Positions 33,777 through 50,004 are shown, numbered from the stretch's first letter. The stretch: 64,000 nt of DNA from Acidimicrobiia bacterium (GCA_036985855.1 BTQL01000004.1:6372-70371), one strand, 5' to 3'. Numbers and translations: made by a program. Notes: generated by a model not told the origin, from the letters alone.

Positions 33777-33818
33777 TCGACCAGAGTACCGAACACGGAG
33801 CCCACACCGAGACTTGTG

Positions 33819-33868
33819 TACCCAGGGTTCGAGACCGCAGTGAGTCCGGTCTACAGCCCAGAGAACGG
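33819..33868 (-). repeat. Structured interspersed repeat, copy 1 (forms a near-perfect 50-bp inverted repeat with copy 2)
   Basis: Reverse complement = CCGTTCTCTGGGCTGTAGACCGGACTCACTGCGGTCTCGAACCCTGGGTAC. It matches copy 2 at 49 of 50 positions. Internal hairpin AGACCG-n9-CGGTCT. Confidence 0.85.
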
Positions 33869-33930
33869 ATGAGTCGTTGTTCCGTGGTGCCATCGGCACG
33901 GGCCTATGGTTTGGGGTCTACGCTTAACCC

Positions 33931-34509
33931 GTGCCCATCTTGCATGGATTCAAGCAGACGGTGCTCGACCTCGGTCGGGGCGAAGCCAAGACCAAGGCGC
34001 GTCCACTCACTGTTGACGACGAGACACTCGACCGGTCCGCGGCTGGTCTTGATCGCAGAGATTCCGAACGTGCGGTCCTGTTCTGGTTGCTGTCTGACCG
34101 AGCTCTATTCTATGTCGTTGGCTGTGATCCGGTCGATCACACGTACCGAATCCCATACGAGGCGTTCGCAGAAATCAGCCTCGATTATGACGAGAACGAG
34201 GAGTTCCTGCCCTGGTACACGCGGATTTCGATCTCCCCGATCGGTGCCGGGGCGATCACCCGACTTGAGCCAGGAGCGATTCCGGGACAGCCACTCGGCG
34301 TCCTGCCGCCCGTGCCCGTAGACGGTGCTGAGAGGGCCCGTTTGGCCCGAGGTGAGGCCGTACCGCTCGCTGGCTTCGGAACTTGTCCCAAGCGATTCCG
34401 AAGCGCTCTGGAACGGCGGATGGAATTGGCAGGTGTTCCACTTTCGGTCACCGGTGCCGAAGCGGCCGAGCGCAAGAGTCGTGCTGTGAGACGCAAGGTC
34501 TCCGGCTAG
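33931..34509 (+). CDS. Hypothetical protein (192 aa), no recognisable domain
   Basis: It is the only ORF between inverted repeat copies 1 and 2. Coding-like GC3 bias. No motif recognised. Confidence 0.4.
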   Translation: MPILHGFKQTVLDLGRGEAKTKARPLTVDDETLDRSAAGLDRRDSERAVLFWLLSDRALFYVVGCDPVDHTYRIPYEAFAEISLDYDENEEFLPWYTRISISPIGAGAITRLEPGAIPGQPLGVLPPVPVDGAERARLARGEAVPLAGFGTCPKRFRSALERRMELAGVPLSVTGAEAAERKSRAVRRKVSG

Positions 34510-34535
34510 GGGAGCGTTGCGCCCTGCGCGCGAAT

Positions 34536-34585
34536 CCATTCTCTGGGCTGTAGACCGGACTCACTGCGGTCTCGAACCCTGGGTA
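34536..34585 (+). repeat. Structured interspersed repeat, copy 2
   Basis: CCATTCTCTGGGCTGTAGACCGGACTCACTGCGGTCTCGAACCCTGGGTAC. It lies 27 nt after the 33931..34509 stop and 17 nt after the stop of the minus-strand gene 34602..35246. Confidence 0.85.
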
Positions 34586-34601
34586 CGCGGTCGTGGATCG
34601 A

Positions 34602-35246
34602 CTACTCGAGCTTTTCGATGTTGTGGCTACCGCAATCCCGGCACCGCATGGGAGCGTGCTCTTCGGCGGTACCGACCCGCAGACTTGTGCCGCAGGCCTT
34701 GCAGAAGTTCGCGTTGCGGTAGTGAGTGGTACCGCACGATGGGCAATCTGCCCAGTCGGTGGTCGTTGCGTCGATGCCACGATCGTCCGATTCGGGCGCG
34801 TCGCCCGGAGGAGGAGGTGTGTACGACCAGAAGCTCTCTTCGTTGTCCACGGTCGCCGGTGCGAAGGGCGGATCCGGTTCGGTTTCTGGTGAGATCGATC
34901 TTGCATGGGTGGTCTCGGGTATGGCGCGTCCATGCGGATCGAGCGTGAAGAGAGCAATGCCCTGGGTTTCGGCGATCGAGAGCGCTCCTGGCGAGAATCC
35001 GGATGGCGAGAAAAGCAGGAGTTTCTTGCCGGCTTCCGCTGCGCGCAACAAGGCGAGTACCGAAGACTGCTCCACTGGTCCGTCGCTGGACCTGACTCGA
35101 ACGAACGCCTTCTCTGTGTGGAGTTCAACGGATCCGTGGGCAGGCTCCGTGATGTCCACCGGCGGATCCCCCGCGTGGTCGAGCCACAGGAATGTCGCTT
35201 GATAGGCCTCGTCGAGTGATAGCTGACTGTGTTTCGGGATGCCCAT
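34602..35246 (-). CDS. Restriction-endonuclease-fold (Mrr-cat/PD-(D/E)xK-like) protein with C-terminal double zinc ribbon
   Basis: The N-terminal ~110 aa follow the Mrr_cat pattern (GDPPVD...VELHTEKAFVRVRSSDGPVEQSSV..LLLFSPSGFSPGALSIAE). A Pro-rich linker follows, then CPSCG..CKACG and CRDCG cysteine pairs. Confidence 0.55.
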   Translation of the reverse strand: MGIPKHSQLSLDEAYQATFLWLDHAGDPPVDITEPAHGSVELHTEKAFVRVRSSDGPVEQSSVLALLRAAEAGKKLLLFSPSGFSPGALSIAETQGIALFTLDPHGRAIPETTHARSISPETEPDPPFAPATVDNEESFWSYTPPPPGDAPESDDRGIDATTTDWADCPSCGTTHYRNANFCKACGTSLRVGTAEEHAPMRCRDCGSHNIEKLE

Positions 35247-35259
35247 ACGTGAATGAAGC

Positions 35260-36159
35260 TTACCCGACGGGCCACCCTCGCTCGAAGGCGATCGAGTGGT
35301 GCCAGTCGGCGAGAAGAGTTCGGAGTGCCGCGACGAATGCCAAGGGTTGGTCGAGCGTCAGATGGTGATGAGCCTCGGGTATCTCGATGACAGGCGAGAC
35401 CCGTCCCATGAGCTCGTACATGTATGCGGCTGTGTCGGGTGGTACGACAACAGACTTTTCACCCGTGAACAGAGCGACTCGGCACTTCACGGACGCCAGC
35501 TGATCACGGAGGGTGTCATGCGTCCGCTCGAAGATATTCGGATCGAATTTCCAGGTCCACCCTTCGTCGGTCTCGTGCACCGACATCCGGGCTATGTAGT
35601 CGATGATGTAATCGTTCTCACATGGCTGGCGCGGCACCAGCGCGAAGTGAGACACCGCCTGTTCCAGAGTTGCATATGTGCCGGGCGTTCTGAAAACGTG
35701 ACTTGATCGGCTTTCCTCGGATTCTGGAGCGGGCTGGCTGACGGGCGCATCAACGATGACGGCCCCTTTCAGTCTCCCTCCGAACGTCGCTGCTGTTTGA
35801 ATCGTGACCATGCCCCCGAGGCTGTGTCCGACGACTACTGGGGGTCCTGGGAACTCGGCGTCTTCTGCTACGGCCATGACCTCGCGGGCCCACACCTCGT
35901 GAGAATATGAATCGCGTCTGTCTGAGTCGCCCATGCCAGAGAGGTGGATCGCAACGGCGTGCCACTCGCTCACGAAGAGCGGCGCGATGAACGACCACCA
36001 GTGGGCGTGCGCCGCACCACCGTGCACGAACACGAGTCCGGGATTCTTCCGGTCGCCCCACGACAGATATCGGATGGTGGCGCCCTCAACGATGACTGCC
36101 CGGTCCTCCGGCTCGTGCGAAATCGCAGTATCGAACCACGTCGGAGCCAAGCTACTCAC
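35260..36159 (-). CDS. Alpha/beta-hydrolase fold protein
   Basis: HGG motif (VFVHGGAAHAH) and the nucleophile elbow GHSLGG. It lies 13 nt upstream of the REase-like gene on the same strand. Confidence 0.75.
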   Translation of the reverse strand: MSSLAPTWFDTAISHEPEDRAVIVEGATIRYLSWGDRKNPGLVFVHGGAAHAHWWSFIAPLFVSEWHAVAIHLSGMGDSDRRDSYSHEVWAREVMAVAEDAEFPGPPVVVGHSLGGMVTIQTAATFGGRLKGAVIVDAPVSQPAPESEESRSSHVFRTPGTYATLEQAVSHFALVPRQPCENDYIIDYIARMSVHETDEGWTWKFDPNIFERTHDTLRDQLASVKCRVALFTGEKSVVVPPDTAAYMYELMGRVSPVIEIPEAHHHLTLDQPLAFVAALRTLLADWHHSIAFERGWPVG

Positions 36160-37855
36160 CGGTCCGCACTTCCTCGGACAGCACGAACCATCTCAGATCC
36201 TCGAATGATGCGGTTGCTTCCACAGGCGGTTGCGCGGGCCCCATCTTCGGGTCGATCGACTCGAACAGAGTTCGCGCCTCTTCGAGATACCGGGCGAGCT
36301 CGGTTTCGGGAGCGTGAGCCGGGCAGGCCTCGTACCGCATCGTGCCGTCGCTGTAGTCGACATTGACCAAGGAGAACGGTGGATCACCTCGCCCATCCAC
36401 GTGCACCCACTCGGCGGTGTGTGTGTCGAACTGATACCACGGAAGCAGCTTCCAACCGTGCGTAGCCACGAGGTTGACGGCTTCGGTGATGAAGTCGAAG
36501 ACAGTCTCTGAGATGAAGTAGTTGAAACTGACCCGAACCCAACCGGGCTTGATCCCCTCACAGCCGAGTCCGACTTCGTGGCTGATCTCGGCGGAGTGCT
36601 CGTCGTCGATTCCCAGCAGCGAGTGACCATAGGGACCGGCACACGAACAGCCACCTCTTGACTGGATTCCGAACAGATCATTGAGGACGGCAACGATGAA
36701 GTTGTGATGGAGATACTGTCCCTTGTGCTTGACAACGAACGACACGATCGAGAGGCGATCAGCGTCAGGATTGCCGAGGATTTCGATTGCCGGATTCTGG
36801 CTCCAAGACGAAATCGCTCTCTTGATGAAGCCCTCTTCGAGGACTCGGATACGCGATGGACCCACCGCTTCCTTGAGTTGGAAGACGAGTCCAGCTCGAA
36901 TCGAACCGACAATCGCCGGTGTGCCACCCTCCTCCCGATGCTCGACGTCTGCTATGTACTCGTGCGAATCGATGCGAACGAATGAAACGGTGCCCCCTCC
37001 GGGTACCGCAGGCACCGCATTCCTGAACAGTTCCTTGCGAGCGACGAGCAATCCGGGTGTGCTCGGACCACCGATCAGCTTGTGGATCGAGATGAAGACA
37101 GCGTCCTTGTATGCCTCTGGTGCATCTCGTGGTTGCACGTCCATCGAAACGTATGGAGCCGCTGCTGCGAAGTCCCAGAACGATAATGCTCCATATCGGT
37201 GGAGTAGGGCAGCGATTCCCTCCGTGTCGGACAGGATCCCTGTGACGTTCGATGCCGCCGAGAACGAACCGATCTTCACCGATCGGTCCCGATACTTGAT
37301 GAGTTCTCGTTCGAGTTGCGCTTTGTCGATGAGGCCGTCGCTGTCCTCGCCGATCTTGACGACATCGGCGATCGACTCGCGCCATGGAAGCTCATTCGAG
37401 TGGTGTTCGAACGGTCCGATGAATACGACGGGCCGCTCATCGGGCGGTATCGCGTCGGAGAGCTGGAACTGTGAGTCGAGCGTGTCCGGTATCGATAGGC
37501 CAAGAACACGGATCATCCGGTCGATCGCACCCGTGCAGCCGCTACCAACGAATATGACGGCGTATTCGTCCGAGGCGTTGAGGCAACGCCGAATTATCTC
37601 ACGCGCATCCTCGCGGAACCCGGACGTCTGGAGTCCGGTTCCTGAGGCCTCTGTGTGGGTATTCGCGTAGAGGGGGAGGACGACATCTCTGATGTAGTCC
37701 TCGATGAAAGTCAGCGATCTTCCTGAAGCGGTGTAGTCGGCATAGGTCACACGACGAGGCCCGTACGGTCCGGACACGACATTGTCCCCCCCGATTACAG
37801 ACGCCCGTACGGTTTCGATGATGTCCATGAGTGGAGGGTAGACGGTAGACAGCAA
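36152..37855 (-). CDS. Class-V aminotransferase-fold PLP enzyme (cysteine desulfurase-like) with C-terminal extension
   Basis: PLP-lysine region 'ISIHKLIGGPSTPGLLV' and a NifS/IscS-like fold. At 567 aa it is longer than canonical desulfurases. Confidence 0.75.
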   Translation of the reverse strand: MLSTVYPPLMDIIETVRASVIGGDNVVSGPYGPRRVTYADYTASGRSLTFIEDYIRDVVLPLYANTHTEASGTGLQTSGFREDAREIIRRCLNASDEYAVIFVGSGCTGAIDRMIRVLGLSIPDTLDSQFQLSDAIPPDERPVVFIGPFEHHSNELPWRESIADVVKIGEDSDGLIDKAQLERELIKYRDRSVKIGSFSAASNVTGILSDTEGIAALLHRYGALSFWDFAAAAPYVSMDVQPRDAPEAYKDAVFISIHKLIGGPSTPGLLVARKELFRNAVPAVPGGGTVSFVRIDSHEYIADVEHREEGGTPAIVGSIRAGLVFQLKEAVGPSRIRVLEEGFIKRAISSWSQNPAIEILGNPDADRLSIVSFVVKHKGQYLHHNFIVAVLNDLFGIQSRGGCSCAGPYGHSLLGIDDEHSAEISHEVGLGCEGIKPGWVRVSFNYFISETVFDFITEAVNLVATHGWKLLPWYQFDTHTAEWVHVDGRGDPPFSLVNVDYSDGTMRYEACPAHAPETELARYLEEARTLFESIDPKMGPAQPPVEATASFEDLRWFVLSEEVRTGE

Positions 37856-37885
37856 GCAGTAGACAGCGTGGGAACTCGTTGCCGT

Positions 37886-38467
37886 CTATAGAGCTATCGC
37901 TCCTTCGCTGAGTAGCAGCTCCTTCTTCATTTCGGGGCCGAAGGCGTAGCTGCCTACTGAGCCGTCCGAGCGCACAACGCGGTGACATGGGATGAGAAAC
38001 GGGATCGGGTTCTTGGCGAGTGCCGTACCAACCGCTCGTGTTGCTCCCGGTTTGTGGAGTTCCTCTGCTATCCAGCCATAAGGGCGCACTGTTCCGTTCG
38101 AGATGGTCGCACAGGTTCTGAGTACGGACTGCTGGAAGCTCGAAAGGCCGCGCAAGTCGAATGACAGGCCCATCGACCGGCCGCTTTCCAACGCCTCTTC
38201 GATCTCGGACTTGAGCAGCTTCGGTATCACATCGGCCTCATAGGCAACCCGCCTGTGGTGATCGACGAACTCATCCACGGTCTTGTCAACGAAGAGAGGG
38301 GTCAGTCCCGTGATCCCGGTCCGGCTCCATGCGATCCACACCGGTCCACGGGAGCTATCGACTTTGGCAACGAGATCCCCTGCGTCTGCGCCGACAACCG
38401 TCGCACGTTCGAGATCGGCGGGCGGTGATTCGGCAAGTCCCGCGAGTGCCTGTTCGATGTAGTTCAT
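37886..38467 (-). CDS. ogt: Methylated-DNA-protein-cysteine methyltransferase (Ogt/MGMT)
   Basis: Active-site PCHRVV and a DNA-binding HTH region (RAVGTALAKNPIPFLIPCHRVVRSDGSVGSYAFG). The start overlaps the ECF sigma factor stop (ATGA). Confidence 0.8.
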   Translation of the reverse strand: MNYIEQALAGLAESPPADLERATVVGADAGDLVAKVDSSRGPVWIAWSRTGITGLTPLFVDKTVDEFVDHHRRVAYEADVIPKLLKSEIEEALESGRSMGLSFDLRGLSSFQQSVLRTCATISNGTVRPYGWIAEELHKPGATRAVGTALAKNPIPFLIPCHRVVRSDGSVGSYAFGPEMKKELLLSEGAIAL

Positions 38468-39036
38468 TTCAGTTCCTCTCGTTCCAGAGCGTCTCTCAAC
38501 CTGTCGAGTCCACGCGAAACGTCAGCTTTCACTGTTCCCTCCGGCCGACCGGTGATTTCCGCGATTTCGGCGATTGGCAAGTCAGCCACATGGCGGAGAA
38601 CGACTGCATTGCGCTGCTCAACCGAGAGTCTCGCCAGCCGTCGATTCCACGACGCCGCGTCGATCGGTGTCTCGTCGGACGCAGCATTCGGGCCGCCCGT
38701 ATGCCGGGCAGTCTCGTTCCTGGAATGTCCTGCTCGGTCCCGACACAGATTGAGGGCAATGGTCCAGAGCCACGCCCGAATGCGCAGATCACGGATTCGG
38801 GCGTCGCTGTACCCGTCGAGCGCTCGGTATGCCCGAAGGAATGTGTCTTGTGCGACTTCCTCGGCATCCTCATGTCTGTGAGTCAGTCTCCGTGCGCCCG
38901 AGTAGATCCCCGGCTGGCAGCTGCGCACGAGCATGGTGAATCCAAGGTCGCGGTTCGTGACCAGGACCTGCTTGATCTCCGCGTCGGTTGATGCATCACG
39001 CGCCTTCATAACCAATAGAACCGGTTCGTGTGCCAA
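38464..39036 (-). CDS. ECF-subfamily RNA polymerase sigma-70 factor
   Basis: Sigma-2 (LQDTFLRAYRAL) and sigma-4 (VVLRHVADLPIAEIAEITGRPEGTVKADVSRGL) regions. 190 aa, no extension. Confidence 0.85.
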   Translation of the reverse strand: MAHEPVLLVMKARDASTDAEIKQVLVTNRDLGFTMLVRSCQPGIYSGARRLTHRHEDAEEVAQDTFLRAYRALDGYSDARIRDLRIRAWLWTIALNLCRDRAGHSRNETARHTGGPNAASDETPIDAASWNRRLARLSVEQRNAVVLRHVADLPIAEIAEITGRPEGTVKADVSRGLDRLRDALEREELK

Positions 39037-39046
39037 TCGGTTGCAG

Positions 39047-39442
39047 TCAATCGAGAAGTTCCGATAACAATGCCCTCACCCGCAGATCGATTTCGTCCCT
39101 CACGGATCGCACGATGTCGAGATCCTTGCCGGCAGGATCGGTCAGTTCCCAGTCCTGGTAGCGCGTTCCCGGAAGCACGGGGCAGGCATCCCCACACCCC
39201 ATCGTGATCACGACATCGGATGCACCGACATCGTCGGTCGACAGCACTCTCGGAGATCTACCGGCGATATCGATTCCCCACTCCGCCAGAACATTCACGG
39301 CTGCAGGATTGACTTCATTTCCTGGTTCCGAGCCGGCGGATCGCACCTCGACGCGCCCCATCGCGTGGTGCTCGAGAAGAGCAGCCCCCATCTGCGAGCG
39401 TCCTGCGTTGTGGACACAGACGAAGAGAACTCGGGGTGTCAT
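39047..39442 (-). CDS. arsC: Arsenate reductase, LMW-PTP/thioredoxin-coupled type
   Basis: P-loop CVHNAGRS plus the downstream Cys pair in 'GCGDACP' that is characteristic of ArsC rather than a generic LMW-PTP. Confidence 0.75.
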   Translation of the reverse strand: MTPRVLFVCVHNAGRSQMGAALLEHHAMGRVEVRSAGSEPGNEVNPAAVNVLAEWGIDIAGRSPRVLSTDDVGASDVVITMGCGDACPVLPGTRYQDWELTDPAGKDLDIVRSVRDEIDLRVRALLSELLD

Positions 39443-39501
39443 GATGCCTTTCGGGATTCGCAGCGATTCTACAGCCGGCCAGGAGGGCGTAGGCTCGCCC
39501 G

Positions 39502-40392
39502 ATGACGAACGATCGTGCGACCAGAGGGGTGATGCTCGCCTTGCTCGCAGCGACGCTTTGGGGTGTGACAGGCGCGGTAGCAGCCGGTGTTTTTGAGGTC
39601 GTGTCTCCCGCGAGGGTTGCTCAGACTCGCTCGCTCGTCGCTCTTGCTGTGCTCGTTCCTTATGCAGCGCACCGTGGTGCGTTGCGCCTCGAAGGTGGGC
39701 TCTGGAGATTCGCCCTGCTCGGGGTGAACCTGGCGCTGGTCAACGTGACGTTCTATTGGGCTCTCGATGCGCTCGGTGTCGGGCCCGGGGCAACGATCCA
39801 GTTCCTCGGCCCCATCCTCGTGCTCGGTTGGATGGTTGTTGTTCATCACACCAAGGTCAGGTCACTTGTGTGGGCGGCCGCGGCCTTCGCTGTGTTCGGT
39901 GTTGGCCTCGTGACGAAGGCGTGGACGCTGGAGGCGTCCGACGCACTAGGGATAGCTGCTGGTCTTGCTTCGGCTGTTGCGTTTGCGACGTATCTGCTCT
40001 ACGGCGAGTATCTCGGAAAGACATTTCGACCGGCGCAGATAGCCACGTGGGGTTTCGTTTTCGCATCGTTGATATGGCTGGTCGTGTTGCCCATCTGGAC
40101 TTTCCCCACGGCGATCGGCACGAGGGCGTGGATCGATCTCATCATCATCGGAGTACTCGGAACTGCGGTCCCGTTCATCGCAGGGTTCGCTGCCTTGAGG
40201 CTTGCGCCCTCGGGAATCGTGGGCGTGATAGCTACGGCAGAGCCTGCGATCGGAGCTGTGGCTGCAGCGATCATGCTCGGTCAAGCCCTCGATCCGGTGC
40301 AGTGGGTGGGAGTTGCTGCCGTTGTCGTCGCTGTTGCCGTTGTGCAGCGTTGGGGTCTCACCCGCCTTCACCCGGCCTCACCGATCGCATGA
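39502..40392 (+). CDS. DMT-superfamily (EamA-like) transporter
   Basis: 10 TM helices as two EamA repeats. Confidence 0.8.
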   Translation: MTNDRATRGVMLALLAATLWGVTGAVAAGVFEVVSPARVAQTRSLVALAVLVPYAAHRGALRLEGGLWRFALLGVNLALVNVTFYWALDALGVGPGATIQFLGPILVLGWMVVVHHTKVRSLVWAAAAFAVFGVGLVTKAWTLEASDALGIAAGLASAVAFATYLLYGEYLGKTFRPAQIATWGFVFASLIWLVVLPIWTFPTAIGTRAWIDLIIIGVLGTAVPFIAGFAALRLAPSGIVGVIATAEPAIGAVAAAIMLGQALDPVQWVGVAAVVVAVAVVQRWGLTRLHPASPIA

Positions 40393-40441
40393 TCTTTTCC
40401 GCCCGGGGAAGTAGGGGCCGACCCGCTGGTAGCTTGACGTT

Positions 40442-40894
40442 ATGAGGTTCGCCAAGAGATTGCTCTTCGGAATGTTCGCGCTCGCGACGTCCTGCACGCT
40501 TGCAGCATTCGTGGTCAGAAAGAGGATCCCCGCATTCGGCGATGAGAGCGACGACAGATTCTCCGTTGTCGCGGCCATGGACGGCGCCGTATTCGCAAGT
40601 GAGGCGACGAACCTTGCGGAAGGCAGTGCGACGACCTTCATGGGTGGGATAGAACTCGATCTGATGGATGCCGACGTCGGGCCGGGGGCCTACCTCGTAC
40701 TTCGAGCTGTGATGGGTGGGATCGATGTTGTTGTCCCTTCGGCGTGGCGCGTCGAGGTGATGGGGCGGTCGGTGATGGGTGGAGTTGCAAACCTCACTGC
40801 ACCAGATGTTCTGTCAGACGACGCACCGGTGCTTCTCATCGACGCACTGGCCGTCATGGGAGGTATCGAGATCCACGCCGCGAGCGTCACCTGA
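40442..40894 (+). CDS. Membrane-anchored protein with LiaF-C-like repeat domain (function unknown)
   Basis: N-terminal TM helix, then repeated 'MGGI(D/E)(V/I)' beta-strand-like motifs (MGGIELDL, MGGIDVVV, MGGVANL, MGGIEIHA). Confidence 0.45.
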   Translation: MRFAKRLLFGMFALATSCTLAAFVVRKRIPAFGDESDDRFSVVAAMDGAVFASEATNLAEGSATTFMGGIELDLMDADVGPGAYLVLRAVMGGIDVVVPSAWRVEVMGRSVMGGVANLTAPDVLSDDAPVLLIDALAVMGGIEIHAASVT

Positions 40895-41457: not shown

Positions 41458-41673
41458 GTCCGCTTGGCGTGCGGGTGAAGCTGGGTCCGTATCAGTCAGC
41501 CGAGCACAGCCGGATTCCAAACCGGTGCAGCCTCGTCAACGATTGTTTCGAATTTGAGACCCATCAGGATCGCTTCGGCACACCCGGCCCGTTCGGCCTC
41601 CGCGGCAGCCTACATCGATGCCAGCCAAGCGATATCTCTGCGGTCCTCGCTCATGGAGAGAAACGACCGAGCC

Positions 41674-44600
41674 TTACTGAGCATCTCTCAGCTCCCTTGG
41701 TTTGCGAGCGATGAAGTATTTCGCCTGCGGGTGGTGGCAGATGATCGCCGATGTCGTCTGCTCGGGTTGGTACTGGAATCCGGTTTCTGGTCCGACATGG
41801 ATTCCGACGCGGTCCGCTCCGAGAAGGTCTGCAACGGTGAGATTGTCCTCAAGATCCGGACAAGCCGGGTATCCCCATGAGTATCGGCCGCCGCGGTAGC
41901 GCTGTCGGAAGAGACCCCTGATAGTCGGGTCGTCCTCGTTCGCGATTCCAAGCTCCTCGCGCACTCGGGCGTGCCAATACTCAGCAAGAGCTTCAGTCAT
42001 CTCGACCCCGAGACCGTGGAGCTTCAGATATTCTTCGTACCGATCCTCCGAAAAGAGCTGAGCAGTTCGCTGGGAAACTGCAGTTCCCATCGTCACGATG
42101 TGGAATGCTGCGACATCAGTGAGGTCTGCGTCGACCGGACGGAAATAGTCTGCGATGCAAAGCCATGGTGGGCCAGGTTGCCTCGGGAATCGGAACCGTA
42201 CAAGTTCCTGTGTCCGAGTCTGGTCTGCCCACACGATGAGCTCGTTGCCGTGGCCGTTCACGGGGAAGTAGCCATACACAACCTGCGGCTGAAGGAGGTC
42301 CTCGGCGCGTGCCGCAGTGATTGCACGCCGCAGCTCAGGAGCGAGACGTTCCTTGAATTGCGCGTCCGTCTCTCCGTGTTCAGGGCGATAATGCCATTGG
42401 TTGCGGAGCAGTGCCGTCGTGTTGAGATACCCGGCGATCTCGTCGAGTTCGATGCCTTTCACGATACGCGATCCGTAGAACGGAGGATCAGGGATCGGTT
42501 TGTCAGCAGATACCTCCGGAGACCGATCGGGTGCGACTCCATGATCCGTTTCCTTACGATCGATCTTTGGAAGTTCGCGCCTCGGGGACTTTGGTTCGTC
42601 GCGTCTACCAGCTATCCACTCCATTGCATCGAGACCGGCAAAGGCATCCTTGCCATAGATCACGGGACCGGGGTGTCGCCGGGCAAGGTCATCTTCAACG
42701 TAGCTTCGCGTCAGCGCGGCACCGCCGAGGAGAACAGGCACGTCATCGTGACCTCTTCGGGAGAGTTCATCGAGGTTGTCCCGCATCACGAGCGTGCTCT
42801 TCACCAGGAGCCCGCTCATTCCGATCGCATCGGCTTCGTGCTTCTCGAGCGCTTCGATCATTTCAGTGATGGACACCTTGATTCCGAGGTTGTGCACCCG
42901 GTATCCGTTGTTCGTGAGGATGATGTCCACGAGGTTCTTTCCGATGTCGTGGACGTCCCCGGATACCGTTGCAATAACGATGCTGCCGCGGTCAGCGGTG
43001 TCGACGTGGTCGAGGTGTGGCTCGAGGTACCGCACCGATGTTTTCATCGTTTGTGCAGAACGCAGGACGAAAGGGAGCTGCATTTCGCCGGCACCGAATA
43101 GCTCGCCGACGGTTTTCATACCCGCAAGGAGTACATCGTTGATGATCGAGAGCGCAGTCGTTTCTTCAAGTGCTTTGTCGAGGTCGTCTTCGAGACCGAT
43201 CGCGTTCCCTGCAACGATTCGCTTCTCCAGACGTTCGATGAGCGTCAGACCCTCGAATGGGTCTTTTGCCTTTTCGGCGTCTGTCACTGTTTCAAATGCC
43301 TCGAGAAGCACTTCAAGGGGGTCGTATCCTTCTGCCCTGCGGTCATAGACCAGGTCGGTGCATGCTTTGAGATGCTCTTCCTCGATCGCTGAAAGGGGTG
43401 TGATCTTGCCCGCGTGGATGATCGCTGCGTCGAGTCCAGCTTCAAGGCATTCGTAGAGGAAGACGGAGTTGAGCACTCGCCTAGCCGCTGGTCTGAGGCC
43501 GAAGGAGATGTTCGACACCCCGAGCACAGTGCTCACGCCTGGGAGTTCCGATTTGATTCGCTTGATCGCCTGGATCGTTTCCATCCCGTCGCGTCTGAGG
43601 TCGTCGTCACCCGTCGAGAGAGGAAACGTGAGGGGATCGAAGATGAGGTCTTCGGCCCTGAGCCCGTAACGCTCGGTCGCGATCCCATAGAGACGATGGG
43701 CAACTTCCATCTTCCACTCGACGTCGCGTGCCTGACCCCGCTCGTCGATGAGGAGACATATCACGGCCGCCCCGTGTTCCTTTGCGAGAGTGAGCACTCT
43801 GTCAAGGCGAGATCCTGTCTCGTCGCCCGATTCGAGGTTGGCCGAGTTGAGGACACACCTTCCTCCGAGTTGCTCGAGCGCTGCTTGCATGACCTCTGGT
43901 TCGGTTGAGTCGATGACAACCGGTGCAGCGACATCTGTCGAGAATCGTTGGGCGATCGGTGTTATGTCTGCAGCACCGTTTCTTCCCACGTAGTCGACAC
44001 ACAGGTCGACCAGGTGCCCCCCCTCTGCGACCTGATTCTCCGCAATGCCGACACACGCGTCGATGTCTCCATCGAGCATCGCCTCCCTGAAGGCCTTTGA
44101 CCCGTTCGCATTGGTCCGTTCGCCGATGATGAGAAACGACGTGTCCTGGTGAAGCGACACCGCTGAGTAGGTCGAGGTGACTGCGGGTATTGCGGAAGGA
44201 TTCCTCTCGGCTGGCGCCCTGTGACCGACTGCATCGATAAGCGTTGCGATGTATTCGGGCGTCGTGCCACAGCAGCCTCCGACGACACTCACACCGTACT
44301 CCTCGACGAATGTGGTGAGATGTTTGGCGACATCCGACGCACCGACGTCATAGTGCATCTCACCGTTGACGACGGACGGCAGGCCAGCGTTCGGTATCAC
44401 CGATATCGGCACCGTCGCGTGGCGTGACAGCACCCGAATCGGTTCGTACATCTCGACGGGTCCGGTCGCGCAGTTGATGCCGATCACATCTGTGCCGAGT
44501 GCTTCGATCGCAGCGAGTGCGGCACCGATCTCGGTGCCCGGCAACATGCGTCCGGTCAACTCGATTGTCACCTGGGTCTGCAGCGGCACGTCGCGTCCCG

Positions 44601-45129
44601 ATGACCGCATGGCGCGGCGGGCACCGTTGATGGCTGCCTTGACAGAGAGGAGGTCGAACTGCGTCTCGATGATGAGCAGGTCTACTCCTCCGTCGATGAG
44701 GCCTGCGGACTCGATCTCGTATTGGCCGCGCAGGTCCGCGTACGCGATTTGGCCGAGAGTCGGAAGCTTCGTCCCAGGGCCGATGGAACCTGCGACGAAT
44801 CGGTCGTCGAATTCGTCTGCGACATGCCTCGCGATCGTGGCACCAGCGGCAGCGAGCTCGTACGCCCTGTCGGCGAGGTCATATTCGCCGAGCGGTACCC
44901 CGAAGGCACCGAAGGTGTTCGTCTCGATGACATCTGAGCCGACGTCCAGGTAGGCGCGGTGCAGGGACTCGATCACGTCAGGACGGGTGATGTTGAGGAT
45001 CTCGTTGCAGCCTTCGAGGTCGGGACCACCGAAATCCTCGTCGGTGAGGTCCTGTGCTTGGAGCCATGTACCTGTTGCGCCGTCGAAGACGACAACACGC
45101 TGTGAAAGGGTGTCGATGTAGTCGGTCAT
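41674..45129 (-). CDS. metH: Cobalamin-dependent methionine synthase
   Basis: 1151 aa with Hcy-binding, pterin-binding, B12-binding (DxHxxG...) and AdoMet activation domains, all collinear. Confidence 0.95.
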   Translation of the reverse strand: MTDYIDTLSQRVVVFDGATGTWLQAQDLTDEDFGGPDLEGCNEILNITRPDVIESLHRAYLDVGSDVIETNTFGAFGVPLGEYDLADRAYELAAAGATIARHVADEFDDRFVAGSIGPGTKLPTLGQIAYADLRGQYEIESAGLIDGGVDLLIIETQFDLLSVKAAINGARRAMRSSGRDVPLQTQVTIELTGRMLPGTEIGAALAAIEALGTDVIGINCATGPVEMYEPIRVLSRHATVPISVIPNAGLPSVVNGEMHYDVGASDVAKHLTTFVEEYGVSVVGGCCGTTPEYIATLIDAVGHRAPAERNPSAIPAVTSTYSAVSLHQDTSFLIIGERTNANGSKAFREAMLDGDIDACVGIAENQVAEGGHLVDLCVDYVGRNGAADITPIAQRFSTDVAAPVVIDSTEPEVMQAALEQLGGRCVLNSANLESGDETGSRLDRVLTLAKEHGAAVICLLIDERGQARDVEWKMEVAHRLYGIATERYGLRAEDLIFDPLTFPLSTGDDDLRRDGMETIQAIKRIKSELPGVSTVLGVSNISFGLRPAARRVLNSVFLYECLEAGLDAAIIHAGKITPLSAIEEEHLKACTDLVYDRRAEGYDPLEVLLEAFETVTDAEKAKDPFEGLTLIERLEKRIVAGNAIGLEDDLDKALEETTALSIINDVLLAGMKTVGELFGAGEMQLPFVLRSAQTMKTSVRYLEPHLDHVDTADRGSIVIATVSGDVHDIGKNLVDIILTNNGYRVHNLGIKVSITEMIEALEKHEADAIGMSGLLVKSTLVMRDNLDELSRRGHDDVPVLLGGAALTRSYVEDDLARRHPGPVIYGKDAFAGLDAMEWIAGRRDEPKSPRRELPKIDRKETDHGVAPDRSPEVSADKPIPDPPFYGSRIVKGIELDEIAGYLNTTALLRNQWHYRPEHGETDAQFKERLAPELRRAITAARAEDLLQPQVVYGYFPVNGHGNELIVWADQTRTQELVRFRFPRQPGPPWLCIADYFRPVDADLTDVAAFHIVTMGTAVSQRTAQLFSEDRYEEYLKLHGLGVEMTEALAEYWHARVREELGIANEDDPTIRGLFRQRYRGGRYSWGYPACPDLEDNLTVADLLGADRVGIHVGPETGFQYQPEQTTSAIICHHPQAKYFIARKPRELRDAQ

Positions 45130-45231
45130 CGAGCACCTCTCGTACAGACACAGGTGCGTTCTGTTGTGGGCACCATCGCGGCTCCTCTCGTCCCGAAACG
45201 CTCACGCGCCTCGAGCGGGTCACCGCTCGTT

Positions 45232-45320
45232 GACATCTCATCGATCAGGCATTGGCACCGAACAGATCGGTTGCCGCGGCTTCACAGGGCCTGTCCCTCC
45301 ACCGCTCTGGATGAGCGCTT
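45232..45320 (-). promoter_or_regulatory. SAM-I (S-box) riboswitch in the metH 5' leader
   Basis: Transcribed strand: CUCAUCCAGAGCGGUGGAGGGACAGGCCCUGUGAAGCCGCGGCAACCGAUCUGUUCGGUGCCAAUGCCUGAUCGAUGAG. It has P1 (CUCAUC/GAUGAG), the GGAGGGA kink-turn, the GGCCC..GCAACC element of P3 and the GGUGCCAAU element of P4. A CGAGCGG-UGAC-CCGCUCG hairpin follows. It lies about 100 nt upstream of the metH ATG. Confidence 0.85.
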
Positions 45321-45353
45321 CGATCAGTGAGCATAGCCGGCTTGTCGGAGGGT

Positions 45354-45719
45354 TTAGGCGTCGCGACGTTTCTTGCGCCGACGCATGTAGCCGCCGAACC
45401 AGCCGAGTAATGCACCAAGCGCGATCGCGATGATGATCACCAGTGACAGCGGAACCCTTCCGCTGAAGAACAGAAACTCCATCTCGGTCTCATCGCTGTT
45501 CTGGACGATGAAGACCGCGGCAATGACGGCGACGATACCTGTGATGATCAGCCCGATCGGGAGACCACCTTCCTTGTATTCCAGGTCGTCTGATCGTTCC
45601 TCGCCGGATTCGTCCGCCACGATGTACCTCCTGGTGGGCCTTCGGCGCACGATATCACACGGTTCGCGAGGCACTAGATTCGTCCCATGAACGAACCCAA
45701 CACAAACCTGAAACGGCAA
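45354..45719 (-). CDS. LapA-like (DUF1049) small membrane protein
   Basis: C-terminal 'GGLPIGLIITGIVAVIAAVFIVQN...RVPLSLVIIIAIALGALLGWFGGYMRRRKKRR' is typical of the DUF1049/LapA fold. The TTG start at 45719 would overlap the divergent gene, so the true start is probably downstream. Confidence 0.45.
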   Translation of the reverse strand: MPFQVCVGFVHGTNLVPREPCDIVRRRPTRRYIVADESGEERSDDLEYKEGGLPIGLIITGIVAVIAAVFIVQNSDETEMEFLFFSGRVPLSLVIIIAIALGALLGWFGGYMRRRKKRRDA

Positions 45720-46892
45720 TCGACCGACAGCTCGACGCGGATGGGCATATCGATCGCTCTCGCCGTTCTATTCGGTATTGCATTGCTCGCGGCGAATCAC
45801 GCGGCATGGCTCACGACCACCATTCTCGACACTGACAGCTTCGTCGCGACATTCGAACCTCTTCCCCAGGACGAGGCGGTATCGCTGGCACTGGCAAACA
45901 AGATCGCCGACGCAGTCATAGAGTCCTACGAGGTATCTGATGTGATCTCAGAGGCTCTTCCGGACGGCATTGCATTCATTGCTGTTCCCCTGACCGACGG
46001 AGTCAGGGATCTGACTGCGGGTATCGCTGCGGAGATCATCCGCTCAGACGCGTTCTCGACTGTATGGACAGCGGCCCTTGCGGCTTCGCACAAGATCGCG
46101 ACGTTATATGTCGGAGCATTCGACGATGGCGTGCTGAAGGCGGAGGACGGTGTTGCTGTGCTCGATCTCACGGCGGTCGGCGCCCAGATTTCCGAGAATC
46201 TTGGCGGCCGTGGATTCGGTCTCCTCGAGGGAGCGGACCGTGAGCTCACGGTCGAGCTGTTCGAGTTGCCTGACTCCGGAATGGTCAAGTTCGTCGTCAA
46301 TTTGATGCACTCGATCAGATGGGTCGTTTTCCTAATCACGATCGGGTTCTTGGCCCTCGCGGTCGCCGTGGCGACGAACAGACGGAGGATTGCGATGTGG
46401 GTCGGCGGCGCGACCGTGCTCGCAATGCTCTTGTCGCTCATCGACATGAGATATCTGAGGGTTGCGCTGACAGGAGACATCGAGGACCCGATTCTGAAGG
46501 CGGGTGCTGAAGCCGCATGGGACATCGTCTTCAGACGGTTCGTATGGCAGTCGTGGGTCGTTCTGCTGTTGGGTGCTGTCGTGGTCTTTGCGGCATGGGC
46601 CATGGGAGATTCCGCTGGTGCGGTGTCCATGCGGGCCGCTGCTGGCGGTACGAATCAGTCGTTTCGGGGTCGTGGTCAGGAATCCCCGGCCATGGTTTTC
46701 GTTGTATCACATCGTCGACTGATCGAGTGGGGCACAGTGGCAGTCGTCATCGGATTTCTGCTGATCGCTCCACCACCCCCGCTCTGGGTTGTTGTCGTGG
46801 GCATCTCGCTGGCGGTCGCGATCATCGCGGGTGTCGAATACATCTCTGCGCGAGTTCCGGAGGAACAGTCAGCCACCGAACGCCCCTCGTAG
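45687..46892 (+). CDS. Integral membrane protein, function unknown
   Basis: 401 aa. An N-terminal TM helix, a soluble region of about 170 aa, then about 6 C-terminal TM helices. Confidence 0.5.
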   Translation: MNEPNTNLKRQSTDSSTRMGISIALAVLFGIALLAANHAAWLTTTILDTDSFVATFEPLPQDEAVSLALANKIADAVIESYEVSDVISEALPDGIAFIAVPLTDGVRDLTAGIAAEIIRSDAFSTVWTAALAASHKIATLYVGAFDDGVLKAEDGVAVLDLTAVGAQISENLGGRGFGLLEGADRELTVELFELPDSGMVKFVVNLMHSIRWVVFLITIGFLALAVAVATNRRRIAMWVGGATVLAMLLSLIDMRYLRVALTGDIEDPILKAGAEAAWDIVFRRFVWQSWVVLLLGAVVVFAAWAMGDSAGAVSMRAAAGGTNQSFRGRGQESPAMVFVVSHRRLIEWGTVAVVIGFLLIAPPPPLWVVVVGISLAVAIIAGVEYISARVPEEQSATERPS

Positions 46893-46907
46893 TCGTACGG
46901 ACATACC

Positions 46908-48701
46908 TCAGCGATCGGTCCGGTACCACTCTTCGATGTTCCAGGTGTGGGATGCCTGAGACGGGTTCATCTTGAACCCTCCGATCTCGTCAGTCCACAC
47001 CGCGCCCGCTGTCAGTCTCTGCACGATCGGCAGTATCACCGCTTGGTCCGCGAGGATCTCCTCTGCTTCTCGCACGAGTGCAACGATCTCGGCTTCGTCG
47101 ACCGTCGTGTTCATCTCCTTGACGATCTCTGCGAATCGTTTCGTATTCTCGTCTCTGACGTCTGATCCCCGGGTGCCCCACCGGTAGAAGTTTCGGCCCT
47201 TCGGCGGCCGGCTGCTCGGATCGAAGACGTCATGAAAGGCGACGAGTCCTGCCAGTCCTGGTGACCCGACCCATGCCCACTGCCCGATGTCCCACGAGCC
47301 TTCGTCGAGCATCTCGCCGAAGAACACAGACGAGTCTTTGAGTTCGAGTTCGAACGGGATGCCTGCTTCGGTCATCATCTCCTTGTACAGACGGGCTAGT
47401 CGTGGCCGCTCATCGGCGTTGCTGGTAGTGGTGAATACAGCCGAACACTCGCGGCCGGTCTCTGCGACAGCGATCTGGTAGAGGGCCCGGGCGGTGTCGG
47501 GATCATACGGGTATCGGCTCCAGGCGTCCGTTGAGATGGAAGGCGTGAATGCGTCGACGTACGATTGCATTGCCGTTCCGTAGCCGGGGTACCAGGAATT
47601 CGCCGCGGCGTCCCGATCGATGGCGTGCATGACCGCCCGACGGAACGCCAGATTATCGTTGCATGAGTCGGGGGATAGGTCGAGCCGACTGTTGGAGAAC
47701 TGGAAGTTGACGTGTTCCCATACGGGTCCAGGGATGACCTCGATGACCGCACCCTCAGCTTCGAGCTTCTTGAGCGGCTCGATGGCCCCCTCGAGCCAGG
47801 GAGGCGGCTGGATGACGTCCACCTCGCGCGCCTTGAACGCGCGGATGATCTGTTCTGTCTCGGGGATGATCCGAAACTCGACGCCGTCGAGGTAGGGGAG
47901 TTGCGTGCCGGTCGCGGGATCTGTCTTCCAGTAGTTCTCGTTGCGGAGGAAGGTGACGGTCTTGTTCTTCTCGAAGGTGTCGAGGACGAAAGGTCCGCCG
48001 GATGGCCACGTCGTCGTGTTCCAGTCCTCGGCAAAGTTGCTGCCTTCGACAGCATGTTTCGGGATCAGCCATTGGAAGAGTGCCTCATGTTTCATCGTCG
48101 GACGTCGGAGGGTCAGCGAGAACGTCCTGTCGCCGACCTCAGAGGCGATGATCGCTGCGTCCGTGTAGGTTCCCCGTCCTGATGAAGACTCGGCCTCAAT
48201 GGCGAGGGCCGTATCCACTGTGAACTGGAAGTCGTCTCCGGAGATCGGTGTTCCGTCCGACCACACGGCCTCGTTCCGGATGCGATAGGTCACGGTCATC
48301 GTACGGTTGCGGTTCACCACGATCCCGCCGTTGGCGACGGTTGGGAGCTCAGTGACGACTTCGGGGGTCCGCTCGAGTGTGTACCCGTCGATGTCCCATG
48401 CACCGGTGAGCCAGGCCTGACCGATGATCGAAACGATGAAGTTGTCGCCACCCGGTGCGAACGGATTCAGCGTTGGCGGAAACTGGTCGTCAGCGATGAT
48501 CACCGTCCCGCCATAACCGGGCCCGGATGGCGCACGGGTGGTGGTCGTCGTTGACGACGAAGTCGTGGTCGTTGGAGGTGCCTTCACCGTCGTGGAGGTC
48601 GTTGTCAATGTCTCGGGAGGCGCGACTGCGTCGTCGACAGAGCCAGTGCATGCTGCCACCAGAAAGGCCAGGGCTACGCCACCTACGAGCATTCGCCTCA
48701 T
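46908..48701 (-). CDS. ABC transporter substrate-binding lipoprotein, family 5 (peptide/nickel, DppA/OppA-like)
   Basis: Lipobox LVAAC, a Thr/Ser-rich linker and an SBP_bac_5 fold. No permease or ATPase genes are adjacent. Confidence 0.85.
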   Translation of the reverse strand: MRRMLVGGVALAFLVAACTGSVDDAVAPPETLTTTSTTVKAPPTTTTSSSTTTTTRAPSGPGYGGTVIIADDQFPPTLNPFAPGGDNFIVSIIGQAWLTGAWDIDGYTLERTPEVVTELPTVANGGIVVNRNRTMTVTYRIRNEAVWSDGTPISGDDFQFTVDTALAIEAESSSGRGTYTDAAIIASEVGDRTFSLTLRRPTMKHEALFQWLIPKHAVEGSNFAEDWNTTTWPSGGPFVLDTFEKNKTVTFLRNENYWKTDPATGTQLPYLDGVEFRIIPETEQIIRAFKAREVDVIQPPPWLEGAIEPLKKLEAEGAVIEVIPGPVWEHVNFQFSNSRLDLSPDSCNDNLAFRRAVMHAIDRDAAANSWYPGYGTAMQSYVDAFTPSISTDAWSRYPYDPDTARALYQIAVAETGRECSAVFTTTSNADERPRLARLYKEMMTEAGIPFELELKDSSVFFGEMLDEGSWDIGQWAWVGSPGLAGLVAFHDVFDPSSRPPKGRNFYRWGTRGSDVRDENTKRFAEIVKEMNTTVDEAEIVALVREAEEILADQAVILPIVQRLTAGAVWTDEIGGFKMNPSQASHTWNIEEWYRTDR

Positions 48702-48790
48702 GTACCGAGGATATCATCTCGGCCATCAGACACCAGGTGCCAGACACTTCGAAACGGGCATCTAGTAATAGTGAGGTCGTTCGTTCGCGC

Positions 48791-48846
48791 CCGTTCTGTG
48801 GGCCGTGGACCGCACTCACTCCGGTCCAGAACCCTGGGTTGAGTAC
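48791..48846 (+). repeat. Structured interspersed repeat, copy 3
   Basis: CCGTTCTGTGGGCCGTGGACCGCACTCACTCCGGTCCAGAACCCTGGGTTGAGTAC. The stem carries compensatory changes relative to copy 2 (GGACCG/CGGTCC vs AGACCG/CGGTCT). Confidence 0.8.
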
Positions 48847-48871
48847 CAGGTCTTGCGCCATACTTGGTGGC

Positions 48872-49963
48872 ATGCGGTTTGCCATGGTGATTGCGGTGCT
48901 GGCTCTCGTCGCCGGCGCGTGCACCGGGTCAGGTTCCCAACCCGTCCCCACCTCTGTGCCGGATGCATCTACGACGCTCGGCACGTCGACGACCTCTAGG
49001 CTGTCGGACACGACCTCGACATCCCAGGCTGCAACTACGACGGTTGAACCGTCCGTTGCGACCGACAAGGCGCCTGAGGTGTTCCAATACGCTGTGGTCG
49101 CCGAGAAGGAAGCTCGCAGACTCGCGGTCATTGATCCGAATGGGGCGTGCGCCGACAATGGCAACGGCTGTGATCTGACTCCGGTTCGAACCGTGGATCT
49201 GTCCGAACGACCGCACAACCTCACCAGCATCGGTTCGGTTGTGTACGCGACTCACCCGGACGCACGGTCGATGTCCCGGATTGACATCGTCACCGGCGAT
49301 GTTCTGACGGTAGCGATCGGGCGCGAACCTCACGATGTCAAATATGACCCAATGTCCGGCGCGATGGTCGTGGCGGATGAGGCCGGACGATCTCTCCTCA
49401 CCGTCGATCCGGAAACCTTGGCTGTCATCGACACACTTGATCTTCCGGGCGAACCCCACGATCTCGCCATCGGCGATGGTGTCATCTGGGTCACTCTCAT
49501 GCGTCGCAGCGAACTCGTCAGAGTCACCGGCGATACAGTCGAGTTGTTGCCAGCCGGTGGCTCACCGCACGATCTCATCGTGGATCTGGACGGGTCTATC
49601 TGGTACTCCAACTGGGGCTCGAAACGTCTCAATATCTTCGATCCTGCCTCCGGAGTCACACCGGAGGCGCCCGTCGGCGTTGGTGAGCCCCAGCACTTCG
49701 CCGTTTCCCCCGAAGGGGCGGTCTGGATATCTGACATCGCCGGTGACGCGATTGTTGGGTTCACTTCGGAGCAATCGGTGACGGTAGACGTCGGACCCTC
49801 CCCGCACCACCTGGCGTTCGTGGGCGACACGATCGTGGTCGCAGTCAGCGGCTCCGGTGAAGCCGTGTTCGTGAGAAACGGACAGGTTGTTGCGAGATCG
49901 CAACTCACCCCCGGCCTGCACGGGGTCGCAGTCGTCGAGCTGACGCAGTTCTCTGGGCCCTAG
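48872..49963 (+). CDS. Secreted lipoprotein with predicted beta-propeller (YVTN/NHL-like repeats)
   Basis: Lipobox LVAGAC, a Thr/Ser-rich linker and repeated 'PH(D/H)L..(D/G)' strand motifs. It is bracketed by repeat copies 3 and 4, and its TAG stop lies inside copy 4. Confidence 0.6.
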   Translation: MRFAMVIAVLALVAGACTGSGSQPVPTSVPDASTTLGTSTTSRLSDTTSTSQAATTTVEPSVATDKAPEVFQYAVVAEKEARRLAVIDPNGACADNGNGCDLTPVRTVDLSERPHNLTSIGSVVYATHPDARSMSRIDIVTGDVLTVAIGREPHDVKYDPMSGAMVVADEAGRSLLTVDPETLAVIDTLDLPGEPHDLAIGDGVIWVTLMRRSELVRVTGDTVELLPAGGSPHDLIVDLDGSIWYSNWGSKRLNIFDPASGVTPEAPVGVGEPQHFAVSPEGAVWISDIAGDAIVGFTSEQSVTVDVGPSPHHLAFVGDTIVVAVSGSGEAVFVRNGQVVARSQLTPGLHGVAVVELTQFSGP

Positions 49964-50000
49964 ACCGGACTCAGTGCGGTCCAGAACCCTGGGTTTGCGG
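49946..50000 (+). repeat. Structured interspersed repeat, copy 4
   Basis: GCAGTTCTCTGGGCCCTAGACCGGACTCAGTGCGGTCCAGAACCCTGGGTT. It sits between convergent genes (lipoprotein stop and nrdJ stop). Confidence 0.8.
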
Positions 50001-50004
50001 GTTC

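Follow-up and report, generated by a model that had tools for sequence, protein, structure and literature searches.

Four copies of a short, imperfectly palindromic repeat lie in a 64-kb stretch of DNA, referred to here as the window and analysed at its full length, from the Acidimicrobiia metagenome-assembled genome (MAG) BMS9Abin12, an assignment based on one encoded protein that matches BMS9Abin12_0341 with 100% identity. They are solo members of a large family resembling the repetitive extragenic palindromes (REPs), with a covarying hairpin, fixed geometries and turnover at orthologous sites, and this family is invariably associated with a gene for a predicted nuclease, which stands between inverted palindromes at every locus examined. 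On balance, the repeats are probably a DNA family akin to REPs and REPINs (REP doublets forming hairpins), whose partner is a nuclease joining a winged helix-turn-helix (wHTH) to a DUF559 domain rather than the REP-associated tyrosine transposase (RAYT).

An initial annotation of the window had described a family of structured repeats of ~50 bp with at least four copies in 16 kb. Its consensus finds four matches in the whole window, spanning 16 kb and each with at most one mismatch, and none in shuffled window sequence, where none is expected by chance. An independent repeat finder recovered the identical four-member family, and a covariance model trained on 90 members of the family, with which the full window was scanned unfiltered, scored the four copies at 62.8–68.4 bits, the next match (15 bits) being the antisense of copy 4. 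Neither sub-motif searches nor this filter-free scan of the whole window revealed a fifth or degenerate copy, so that the count is exactly four. Comparison of the flanks (80 nt each side) extended the similarity ~5 nt before and 8 nt after a 45-nt core, for a total of ~58 nt. Copy 1 lies on the minus strand at 33812..33869 (core 33820-33864; 68.4 bits), and copies 2, 3 and 4 lie on the plus strand at 34535..34592 (core 34540-34584; 68.4 bits), 48790..48847 (core 48795-48839; 62.8 bits) and 49945..50002 (core 49950-49994; 68.4 bits), each recovered by consensus, repeat finder and covariance model. Copies 1 and 2 form an inverted (−,+) pair with 675 nt between them. Copies 3 and 4, both (+), are direct repeats flanking a lipoprotein gene whose stop codon lies inside copy 4, an arrangement that had been annotated and with which the coordinates agree. 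The co-ordinated change reported for the central hairpin is likewise real, the pair at positions 13 and 33 being A13-T33 in the first two copies, G13-C33 in the third and an A·C intermediate in the fourth. One compensatory pair in four copies is weak structural evidence, and the single-copy folding energies of the window copies are ordinary (z −0.9 to −2.5).

The size of the family was estimated from two scans. Species-representative genomes, searched with a pattern in which the stem was left free, yielded 14 loci, spread over four Acidimicrobiia MAGs and in many cases at contig ends, and a broader pattern applied to metagenome contigs yielded at least 120, bringing both scans together to at least 134 loci. 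These loci and the window hold at least 177 distinct copies, with 44 or 45 nt between fixed points; a collection of viral contigs held none. All copies share two non-identical arms, C-R-T-TCTGTGGGC and GAACCCTGGGT-WCGC, the 3′ arm belonging to a 13-nt palindrome, GAACCCTGGGTTC. The centre of ~25 nt is lineage-specific in sequence (e.g., GACCGGACTCAGTCCGGTC, CTGGGTAGTACTGGGTACTACCCAG and GGGTGCGATTTCCGCACCC) and, in the 45-nt class, nearly always forms a hairpin. When 90 distinct 58-nt copies were aligned without gaps, changes on both sides were present at every one of the ten central pairs, and the covariation score was 0.302, compared with 0.143 after shuffling (none of 500 reached the observed value) and at most 0.093 for slid partners; separate per-column counts were consistent with this result. 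Selection on secondary structure, which the initial annotation had proposed from the window copies, is borne out by this extended alignment, and of the two findings that it had named as speaking against its proposal, a lack of further copies and a lack of covariation, neither was encountered.

The copies are short imperfect palindromes, numerous and extragenic, all of them lying in spacers or overlapping a stop codon, as is characteristic of REPs in the broad sense, and the REP-like character suggested earlier holds for a family that is dispersed, structured and multi-copy. They do not belong to the super-families of REPs tagged by GTAG or CGTC. The bases before the stem are GTAG in copies 1 and 2, GTGG in copy 3 and CTAG in copy 4, and across the family GTAG is found only in copies 1 and 2 and in some copies of MAG CAZWMX01, other lineages carrying unrelated bases. 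Rfam has no family for the repeat. At the gathering threshold, the window matched only a SAM (S-adenosylmethionine) riboswitch, and seven loci searched at E<=1 gave tmRNA, tRNA and, in one locus, a chance sub-threshold match of a miRNA family to the palindrome. A clustered regularly interspaced short palindromic repeat (CRISPR) array was also considered and excluded, the linkers between adjacent copies being constant and short. Two variants of the unit were encountered. At L001 2940-2964, a centre-less unit, GTTCTCTGGGCTCACGACGGGTTGC, resembles a deletion between an internal direct repeat, CTGGGYTCACGAC, that is present after both TGGGC and TGGGT. At L018 13993-14133, a subfamily possesses an additional upstream hairpin, GCCCACAGA-tga-TCTGTGGGC, with a 3-nt tandem linker and a 48-nt period.

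The positions of the copies relative to genes, called with a self-trained open reading frame (ORF) caller that was checked on the window, are patterned. Among the matches listed, and relative to the forward orientation of the repeat, 40 copies occupy convergent spacers, 66 co-directional spacers (42 antisense, 24 sense) and 17 divergent spacers, and the GGGT end points toward a gene 3′ end in 96 cases versus 50. Several motifs recur near this end. CTAA accounts for 23 of the 70 stops that abut it (examples are window 50005-50008, L015, L021, L080 and L119), TTAG occurs within 22 nt of it in 15% of copies compared with 0.4% of background, and tandem arrays carry CTGA at the linker position homologous to the stop site. 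Repeats are also found directly after a tmRNA gene and near tRNA genes (L006 2606-3115, L016 1575-1776 and L087 207-421).

Neighboring copies are arranged in a small number of geometries. The linker of close direct pairs is 14–16 nt in 14 of 16 cases, and some loci from the genome scan contain head-to-tail arrays with a 61-nt period. Inverted (−,+) doublets, with the TCTG ends facing each other, have a spacer of 27–28 nt (five cases); no such doublet exists among the four window copies, and no (+,−) pair closer than 1 kb was found in the family loci. Downstream of the hairpin comes GAACCCTGGGT (on the opposite strand, GCCCACAGA), with no T-run following and no terminator-like site at any copy. 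Because there is no such T-run and no bias between G·T and A·C mispairs (61 vs 80) that would track the transcribed strand, the repeat appears to be an element of DNA rather than an RNA under selection on one strand.

Comparison of orthologous loci revealed turnover of the copies. Where the encoded proteins are 89% identical to those of the window, both sides of the 192-aa gene that lies between copies 1 and 2 are repeat-free; at 83% identity, a repeat with another centre stands at the copy-2 site, and more distant orthologues are repeat-free, the spacers at 83–89% protein identity being too diverged for alignment. At other shared sites, with flanks 78–92% identical, the centres or the lengths of the arrays differ. 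The 3′ end of the ribonucleotide reductase gene, for example, carries a repeat both in the window and in L061, and the two have differing centres. These differences imply that copies come and go, expand, and are re-matched to whichever variant resides in a genome.

The partner gene emerged from the repeat loci themselves, and it was not the RAYT/IS200-like transposase for which the initial annotation had proposed a search. In five loci retrieved by pattern, an ORF of ~300 aa lies between two inverted copies, the left one (−) and the right one (+) irrespective of the strand of the gene; in one of the five, L035, the gene is a frameshifted pseudogene. The TCTG ends face inward to the gene and the GGGT ends outward, the bracketing repeats are of the host genome's own variant, and the units measure 1.04–1.13 kb in total. 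An unbiased test was made with eight homologues chosen by protein sequence alone, seven of which had DNA (P0335 had none), whose flanks were read afterward. Five of them (P0011, P0019, P0033, P0056 and P0269) are each bracketed (−,+) by the Acidimicrobiia family, with at least three centre types, P0250 is bracketed by a diverged relative of the family with the outer palindrome GAACCTTAGGTTC, and the palindrome around P0318, 43 nt long, is an unrelated one. Bracketing by palindromes was found at every locus examined, including all seven of these homologues. Among ~970 other called genes, only the 192-aa gene of the window is similarly bracketed. The single-domain DUF559 gene ycjD of Escherichia coli has no matched inverted pair around it, so the architecture is not general to DUF559 genes.

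A search of PLSDB extended the association to a cultured organism. The only full-length match was a DUF559 gene, 28% identical, of Tsukamurella tyrosinosolvens NCTC13231, which is surrounded by 42-nt palindromic arms that are 93% complementary and unrelated to the Acidimicrobiia family (loci L157 1359-2394, L158 1501-1542 and L159 1501-1542). Of the solo copies of this 42-mer, one fills a convergent spacer and one lies in a divergent spacer, which parallels the window. The Tsukamurella "plasmids" of PLSDB resemble chromosome fragments, with nrdF and pntB aboard. Nuclease units occupy at least nine distinct gene neighborhoods, and one syntenic locus, Hpt-TilS-Zincin_2, is common to the nuclease genes of four lineages, which, as read from loci of up to ~15 kb, lends partial support to a vertically inherited partner. 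In MAG CAZWMX01, a single locus among ten bears the gene. A large share of the nuclease homologues lie on contigs of ~1–3 kb, and loci from the genome scan often end in repeat arrays; the short contigs would fit assembly breaks at the flanking repeats.

The partner protein is an AbiEi-like wHTH fused to a predicted DUF559/Vsr-like nuclease of the PD-(D/E)xK type. Its Pfam matches are DUF559, MTES_1575 (REase_MTES_1575) and AbiEi_4, the proteins of L004 and L008 scoring 23.8 and 26.5 bits against DUF559 (PF04480), for which the cut-off is 20.6. A search of PDB sequences found no relative of the protein, and its likeness to known structures emerged from a fold search with an AlphaFold2 model (predicted local distance difference test, pLDDT, 89.9). 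In the model, the N-terminal ~200 residues match the fold of the AbiEi antitoxin (6y8q), and the C-terminal ~100 residues are predicted to resemble most closely the catalytic domain of I-Bth0305I (3r3p; template modelling score, TM, 0.82), followed by Vsr (1vsr, TM 0.52) and NGO0050 (3hrl). Residues of catalytic type, D232, E243, H250, D259 and R262, are invariant among 50 homologues, 556 close homologues exist at E<=1e-10, and the nuclease family is under purifying selection. The Pfam scores above the cut-off, the modelled fold and the conserved acidic and histidine residues together indicate a member of the DUF559/Vsr-like group. A reading of the conserved T3·G43 in CCCTGGG as a Vsr-type T:G mismatch was dropped, the register being incompatible with CTWGG. 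The promoter spacer of the nuclease gene contains a palindrome, TGTCAC-N6-8-GTGACA (L008 5341-5385, L135 2957-3000, L136 2953-3000 and L139 2945-3000), a plausible operator through which the AbiEi-like winged helix would regulate its own gene.

A mechanism for such a partnership can be outlined, in which the nuclease would recognize the palindromic or cruciform repeat and cut at or near it, and repair of the break from other copies would lead to their spread, homogenization, expansion and deletion. Copies would survive where they are least harmful, at gene 3′ ends and in spacers, and the survivors may secondarily act as 3′-end hairpins; a secondary role of this kind is possible and would fit the proximity to stop codons. 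Cutting and repair would account for the uniformity of the repeats within a genome, their divergence between genomes with compensatory changes, the arrays and doublets, and the differences in presence and absence. The nuclease would then occupy the place that RAYT holds relative to classical REPs. It is possible, if somewhat doubtful, that Actinomycetota possess a second and mechanistically distinct partnership of the REPIN–RAYT kind, in which a vertically kept AbiEi-wHTH plus Vsr-like homing-type endonuclease would maintain and spread palindromes by cutting and recombinational repair, not by HUH single-strand transposition, with the Acidimicrobiia family and the 42-nt palindrome of Tsukamurella as two lineages.

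The comparison rests on the REP/REPIN–RAYT systems of Proteobacteria, with which Nunvar 2010 is reportedly associated. REPs are among the commonest bacterial repeats, and RAYT is, to our knowledge, the only class of REP partner enzyme. Like those systems, the present family consists of short imperfect extragenic palindromes biased toward gene 3′ ends, which are uniform in one genome and differ between lineages even at shared sites, and some of its loci contain inverted doublets with a fixed short spacer, as REPINs do. The partner gene between inverted copies, at a conserved locus, is a further likeness, since the RAYT gene is itself described as bracketed by inverted copies at a conserved locus (Bertels & Rainey 2011, PMC3116915; Di Nocera 2013, PMC3733652). 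The differences are as clear. The bracketed gene encodes an AbiEi-like domain and a Vsr-like nuclease, i.e., a wHTH plus PD-(D/E)xK protein of the DUF559/Vsr-like kind, and not the Y1 HUH transposase of IS200/IS605 type that defines a RAYT; a conserved GTAG or CGTC tag is absent; the unit is longer (45–58 nt), with arms kept across lineages whose partner proteins are 35–74% identical to the queries; head-to-tail arrays are common; and the hosts are Actinomycetota. In form and behavior the family is REP-like, yet it fails two defining tests of a REP–RAYT system, the tag and the Y1 transposase. Entire super-families of REPs lack a known mobilizer, and those of the CGTC type, one example, have no dedicated enzyme according to one survey (PMC3733652). 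Nothing was found in the searchable literature on dispersed palindromes around DUF559/MTES_1575 genes, on REPs associated with RAYT in Actinobacteria or on palindromic intergenic repeats in Acidimicrobiia.

A number of observations weigh against a nuclease-driven family. We know of no route by which a PD-(D/E)xK nuclease could seed solo copies at new sites, and homing or gene conversion gives a better account of spread into existing copies than to new sites. The nuclease gene itself moves rarely, as its residence at one syntenic locus in four lineages indicates, and no target-site duplication is visible at eight nuclease units with inverted ends of 45–58 nt. A profile of 111 homologues compared with six-frame translations found no partner gene in the window, including the interval between copies 1 and 2. 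When flank matches were paired across all loci, they revealed differences in copy number and centre, with no clean empty site among them. The search patterns themselves account for part of the arm conservation among the 177 copies, and in the flanks of the protein-retrieved genes, which are pattern-free, only TGGGC and CCCTGGGT were confirmed. In 65 of 96 cases, far above chance, the distance between the GGGT end and a stop codon is 0–20 nt, and TAA makes up 31 of the 70 stops abutting that end (44%), compared with 10.5% of all called stops; this proximity and excess may reflect selection at the level of RNA or translation instead of mobility. Finally, the association of repeat and nuclease is by itself compatible with either direction of causality.

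That last point bears on an explanation in which the roles are reversed, the repeats being spread by something else and the nuclease gene being a homing-type selfish gene that enters the centres of inverted palindrome doublets, as IS1397 and ISKpn1 target the loops of REPs and of bacterial interspersed mosaic elements (BIMEs). Empty (−,+) doublets with a fixed spacer of 27–28 nt do exist, with a polarity shared by those that are filled, a homing endonuclease is the nearest structural counterpart of the catalytic domain, and unrelated palindromes bracket the gene in distant lineages; the frameshifted pseudogene of L035 and the many homologues on ~1-kb contigs would also suit a selfish gene. This explanation is nevertheless unlikely. 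How the repeats arose and spread, and why they are homogeneous within a genome, finds no explanation in it; the occupation of one syntenic locus across proteins 60–74% identical to the query, with the flanking centre type changed, looks like long co-residence and not like recurrent invasion; and CAZWMX01 bears the gene at only one of its ten loci. Less probable again is a host RNA element, either a bidirectional terminator lacking a U-tail or a stabilizer of mRNA 3′ ends, for which the nuclease gene would be just another carrier. Enrichment at gene 3′ ends (convergent 40, co-directional 66, divergent 17), the closeness of stops to the GGGT end (0–20 nt in 65 of 96) with their enrichment for TAA, the repeats after tmRNA and tRNA genes, and the filling of a convergent spacer both by copy 4 and by a Tsukamurella solo copy all accord with such a function. 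The hairpin lacks a following T-run, though, and divergent promoter spacers contain two of the four copies in the window along with 17 others. A terminator needs no conserved asymmetric arms with conserved mismatches, the transcribed strand shows no G·U excess, and the arrays, the fixed doublets and the two-sided bracketing of one gene family, on its upstream side too, would go unexplained. The terminator that the initial annotation had offered as one possibility is accordingly not supported as an intrinsic one, there being no T-tail and no terminator-like site coinciding with any copy.

Mobilization in trans by a RAYT (an IS200/IS605-type Y1 HUH enzyme) encoded elsewhere would make the family one of classical REPs, with which it shares size, palindromic form, extragenic position, doublets and species-specific sequence at common sites, and copies 1 and 2 do have GTAG before the stem. 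This possibility is given very little weight. GTAG is not conserved, being GTGG in copy 3, CTAG in copy 4 and variable in other lineages, the bracketed gene encodes something other than a Y1 transposase, and a keyword search of a published survey of REPs met no mention of Actinobacteria (PMC3733652). Hardly credible at all is a target of site-specific recombination (attC-like, or a cassette boundary of the Xer/dif kind) or a small structured RNA gene, both of which had also been suggested for the window copies. Two genes of the window each lie between two copies, and conserved ends around a variable structured centre recall attC. The bracketed 192-aa gene, though, is conserved, syntenic and repeat-free in close relatives, and the repeat is bounded by GTTC...GAAC, opposite in order to attC (AAC...GTT), with a 25-nt centre that far exceeds the 6–8 nt of dif; pairs, moreover, occur in both relative orientations. 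As for a small RNA, copies occur in both orientations to genes, two of the window copies are in divergent promoter spacers, Rfam offers no match, and G·U asymmetry is absent.

The pairing of a REP-like family with a wHTH–DUF559 nuclease, which we continue to favor, can also be set beside other mobile and structured elements. Enterobacterial BIMEs and IS1397/ISKpn1 resemble it in their clusters of palindromes with conserved linkers and in the placement of a coding element between two inverted palindromes. BIME units alternate in orientation, whereas the present arrays are mostly direct, and IS1397 encodes a DDE transposase and has its own inverted repeats and a target duplication, whereas here the repeats are the sole flanks and no duplication is seen. 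With I-Bth0305I (3r3p) and Vsr (1vsr), the partner shares a predicted catalytic fold and what may be a selfish-gene style of organization. I-Bth0305I, in contrast, is intron-encoded in a phage gene and has one long target site, whereas the partner here is free-standing, combines its nuclease with an AbiEi-like DNA-binding part and is associated with a genomic repeat of many copies. The N-terminal fold is that of AbiEi (6y8q), and the promoter palindrome recalls, by analogy, the autoregulation of AbiEi at inverted repeats; unlike AbiEi, the partner lacks an AbiEii toxin and is fused to a nuclease instead. Miniature inverted-repeat transposable elements (MITEs; Correia/NEMIS) and attC sites are likewise small, structured, non-coding intergenic repeats, and conserved ends with a variable paired centre are attC-like. 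No MITE-like signature of terminal repeats plus target duplication was seen for the family, nor was a linked DDE transposase. The cores of attC are R''(RYYYAAC)...R'(GTTRRRY), compared with GTTC...GAAC here, and no linked integrase was seen, none having been searched for. Unlike attC arrays, the repeats lie scattered, in either orientation, among conserved housekeeping genes.

If the proposed partnership is real, systems of a repeat plus its keeper arose more than once, and a function would be at hand for a large actinobacterial group of hypothetical proteins annotated as "DUF559/AbiEi-domain". It would also explain the ~1-kb metagenome contigs of nuclease genes, provided that the flanking repeats break assemblies. 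With a cultured carrier, T. tyrosinosolvens NCTC13231, the system is directly testable. On a practical level, assemblies of Acidimicrobiia MAGs are fragmented by the repeats, with contigs ending in them, and the repeats can mislead the calling of starts and stops, as at copies 1 and 4.

The gene context of the window copies was established from ORFs, Pfam matches and comparison of orthologues. Two of the copies (1 and 3) are in divergent promoter spacers and the other two (2 and 4) in convergent ones. Copy 1 is upstream of both of its neighbors, an Rce1-like gene (start 33776, 43 nt away) and the 192-aa ORF (33931, 66 nt away); an ORF that seemingly crosses the copy is an over-extension, orthologues setting the Rce1-like start at 33776. 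Copy 2 is flanked by the convergent stops of the 192-aa ORF (34509) and of a Zn-ribbon/Mrr-like gene (34602). Copy 3 stands between the diverging starts of an SBP_bac_5 gene (48701) and of the lipoprotein gene (ATG 48872), and copy 4 fills the 41-nt convergent spacer between the lipoprotein gene and a class II ribonucleotide reductase gene (stop 50005-50007). The earlier statement that all copies are intergenic is correct for copies 1–3; copy 4 covers the final 14 nt of the lipoprotein coding sequence, including the stop codon at 49961-49963. The 192-aa ORF that separates copies 1 and 2 corresponds to a gene conserved, together with its synteny, in Acidimicrobiia; as such, and with no match to the nuclease profile, it was ruled out as a decayed partner or cargo gene.

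Several other features of the window were recorded. In orthologues, the divergent spacer between the Rce1-like and 192-aa genes (window 33777-33930), where copy 1 stands in the window, holds tandem heptamers that vary by genome, namely TTCACAG (three copies), or ACGTAGT (three copies) with TGTTCTC/TGCCCTC, or CCGATGA (four copies), GTCTGAC (three copies) and AGCTGTR (three copies) together; such spacers are found at L143 2360-2500, L146 2338-2500 and L149/L150 2302-2500. The gene beside copy 2, at 34602-35246 (−), has a weak match to the Mrr_cat restriction endonuclease domain (E 5e-4) and a C-terminal double zinc ribbon; its synteny is kept in orthologues and no connection to the repeats was seen. 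The SAM riboswitch (RF00162, 69.8 bits), which is unrelated to the repeats, lies at 45235-45317 (−), ~105 nt upstream of a 1151-aa ORF at 41674-45129 (−) that, by the look of its sequence, probably encodes methionine synthase.

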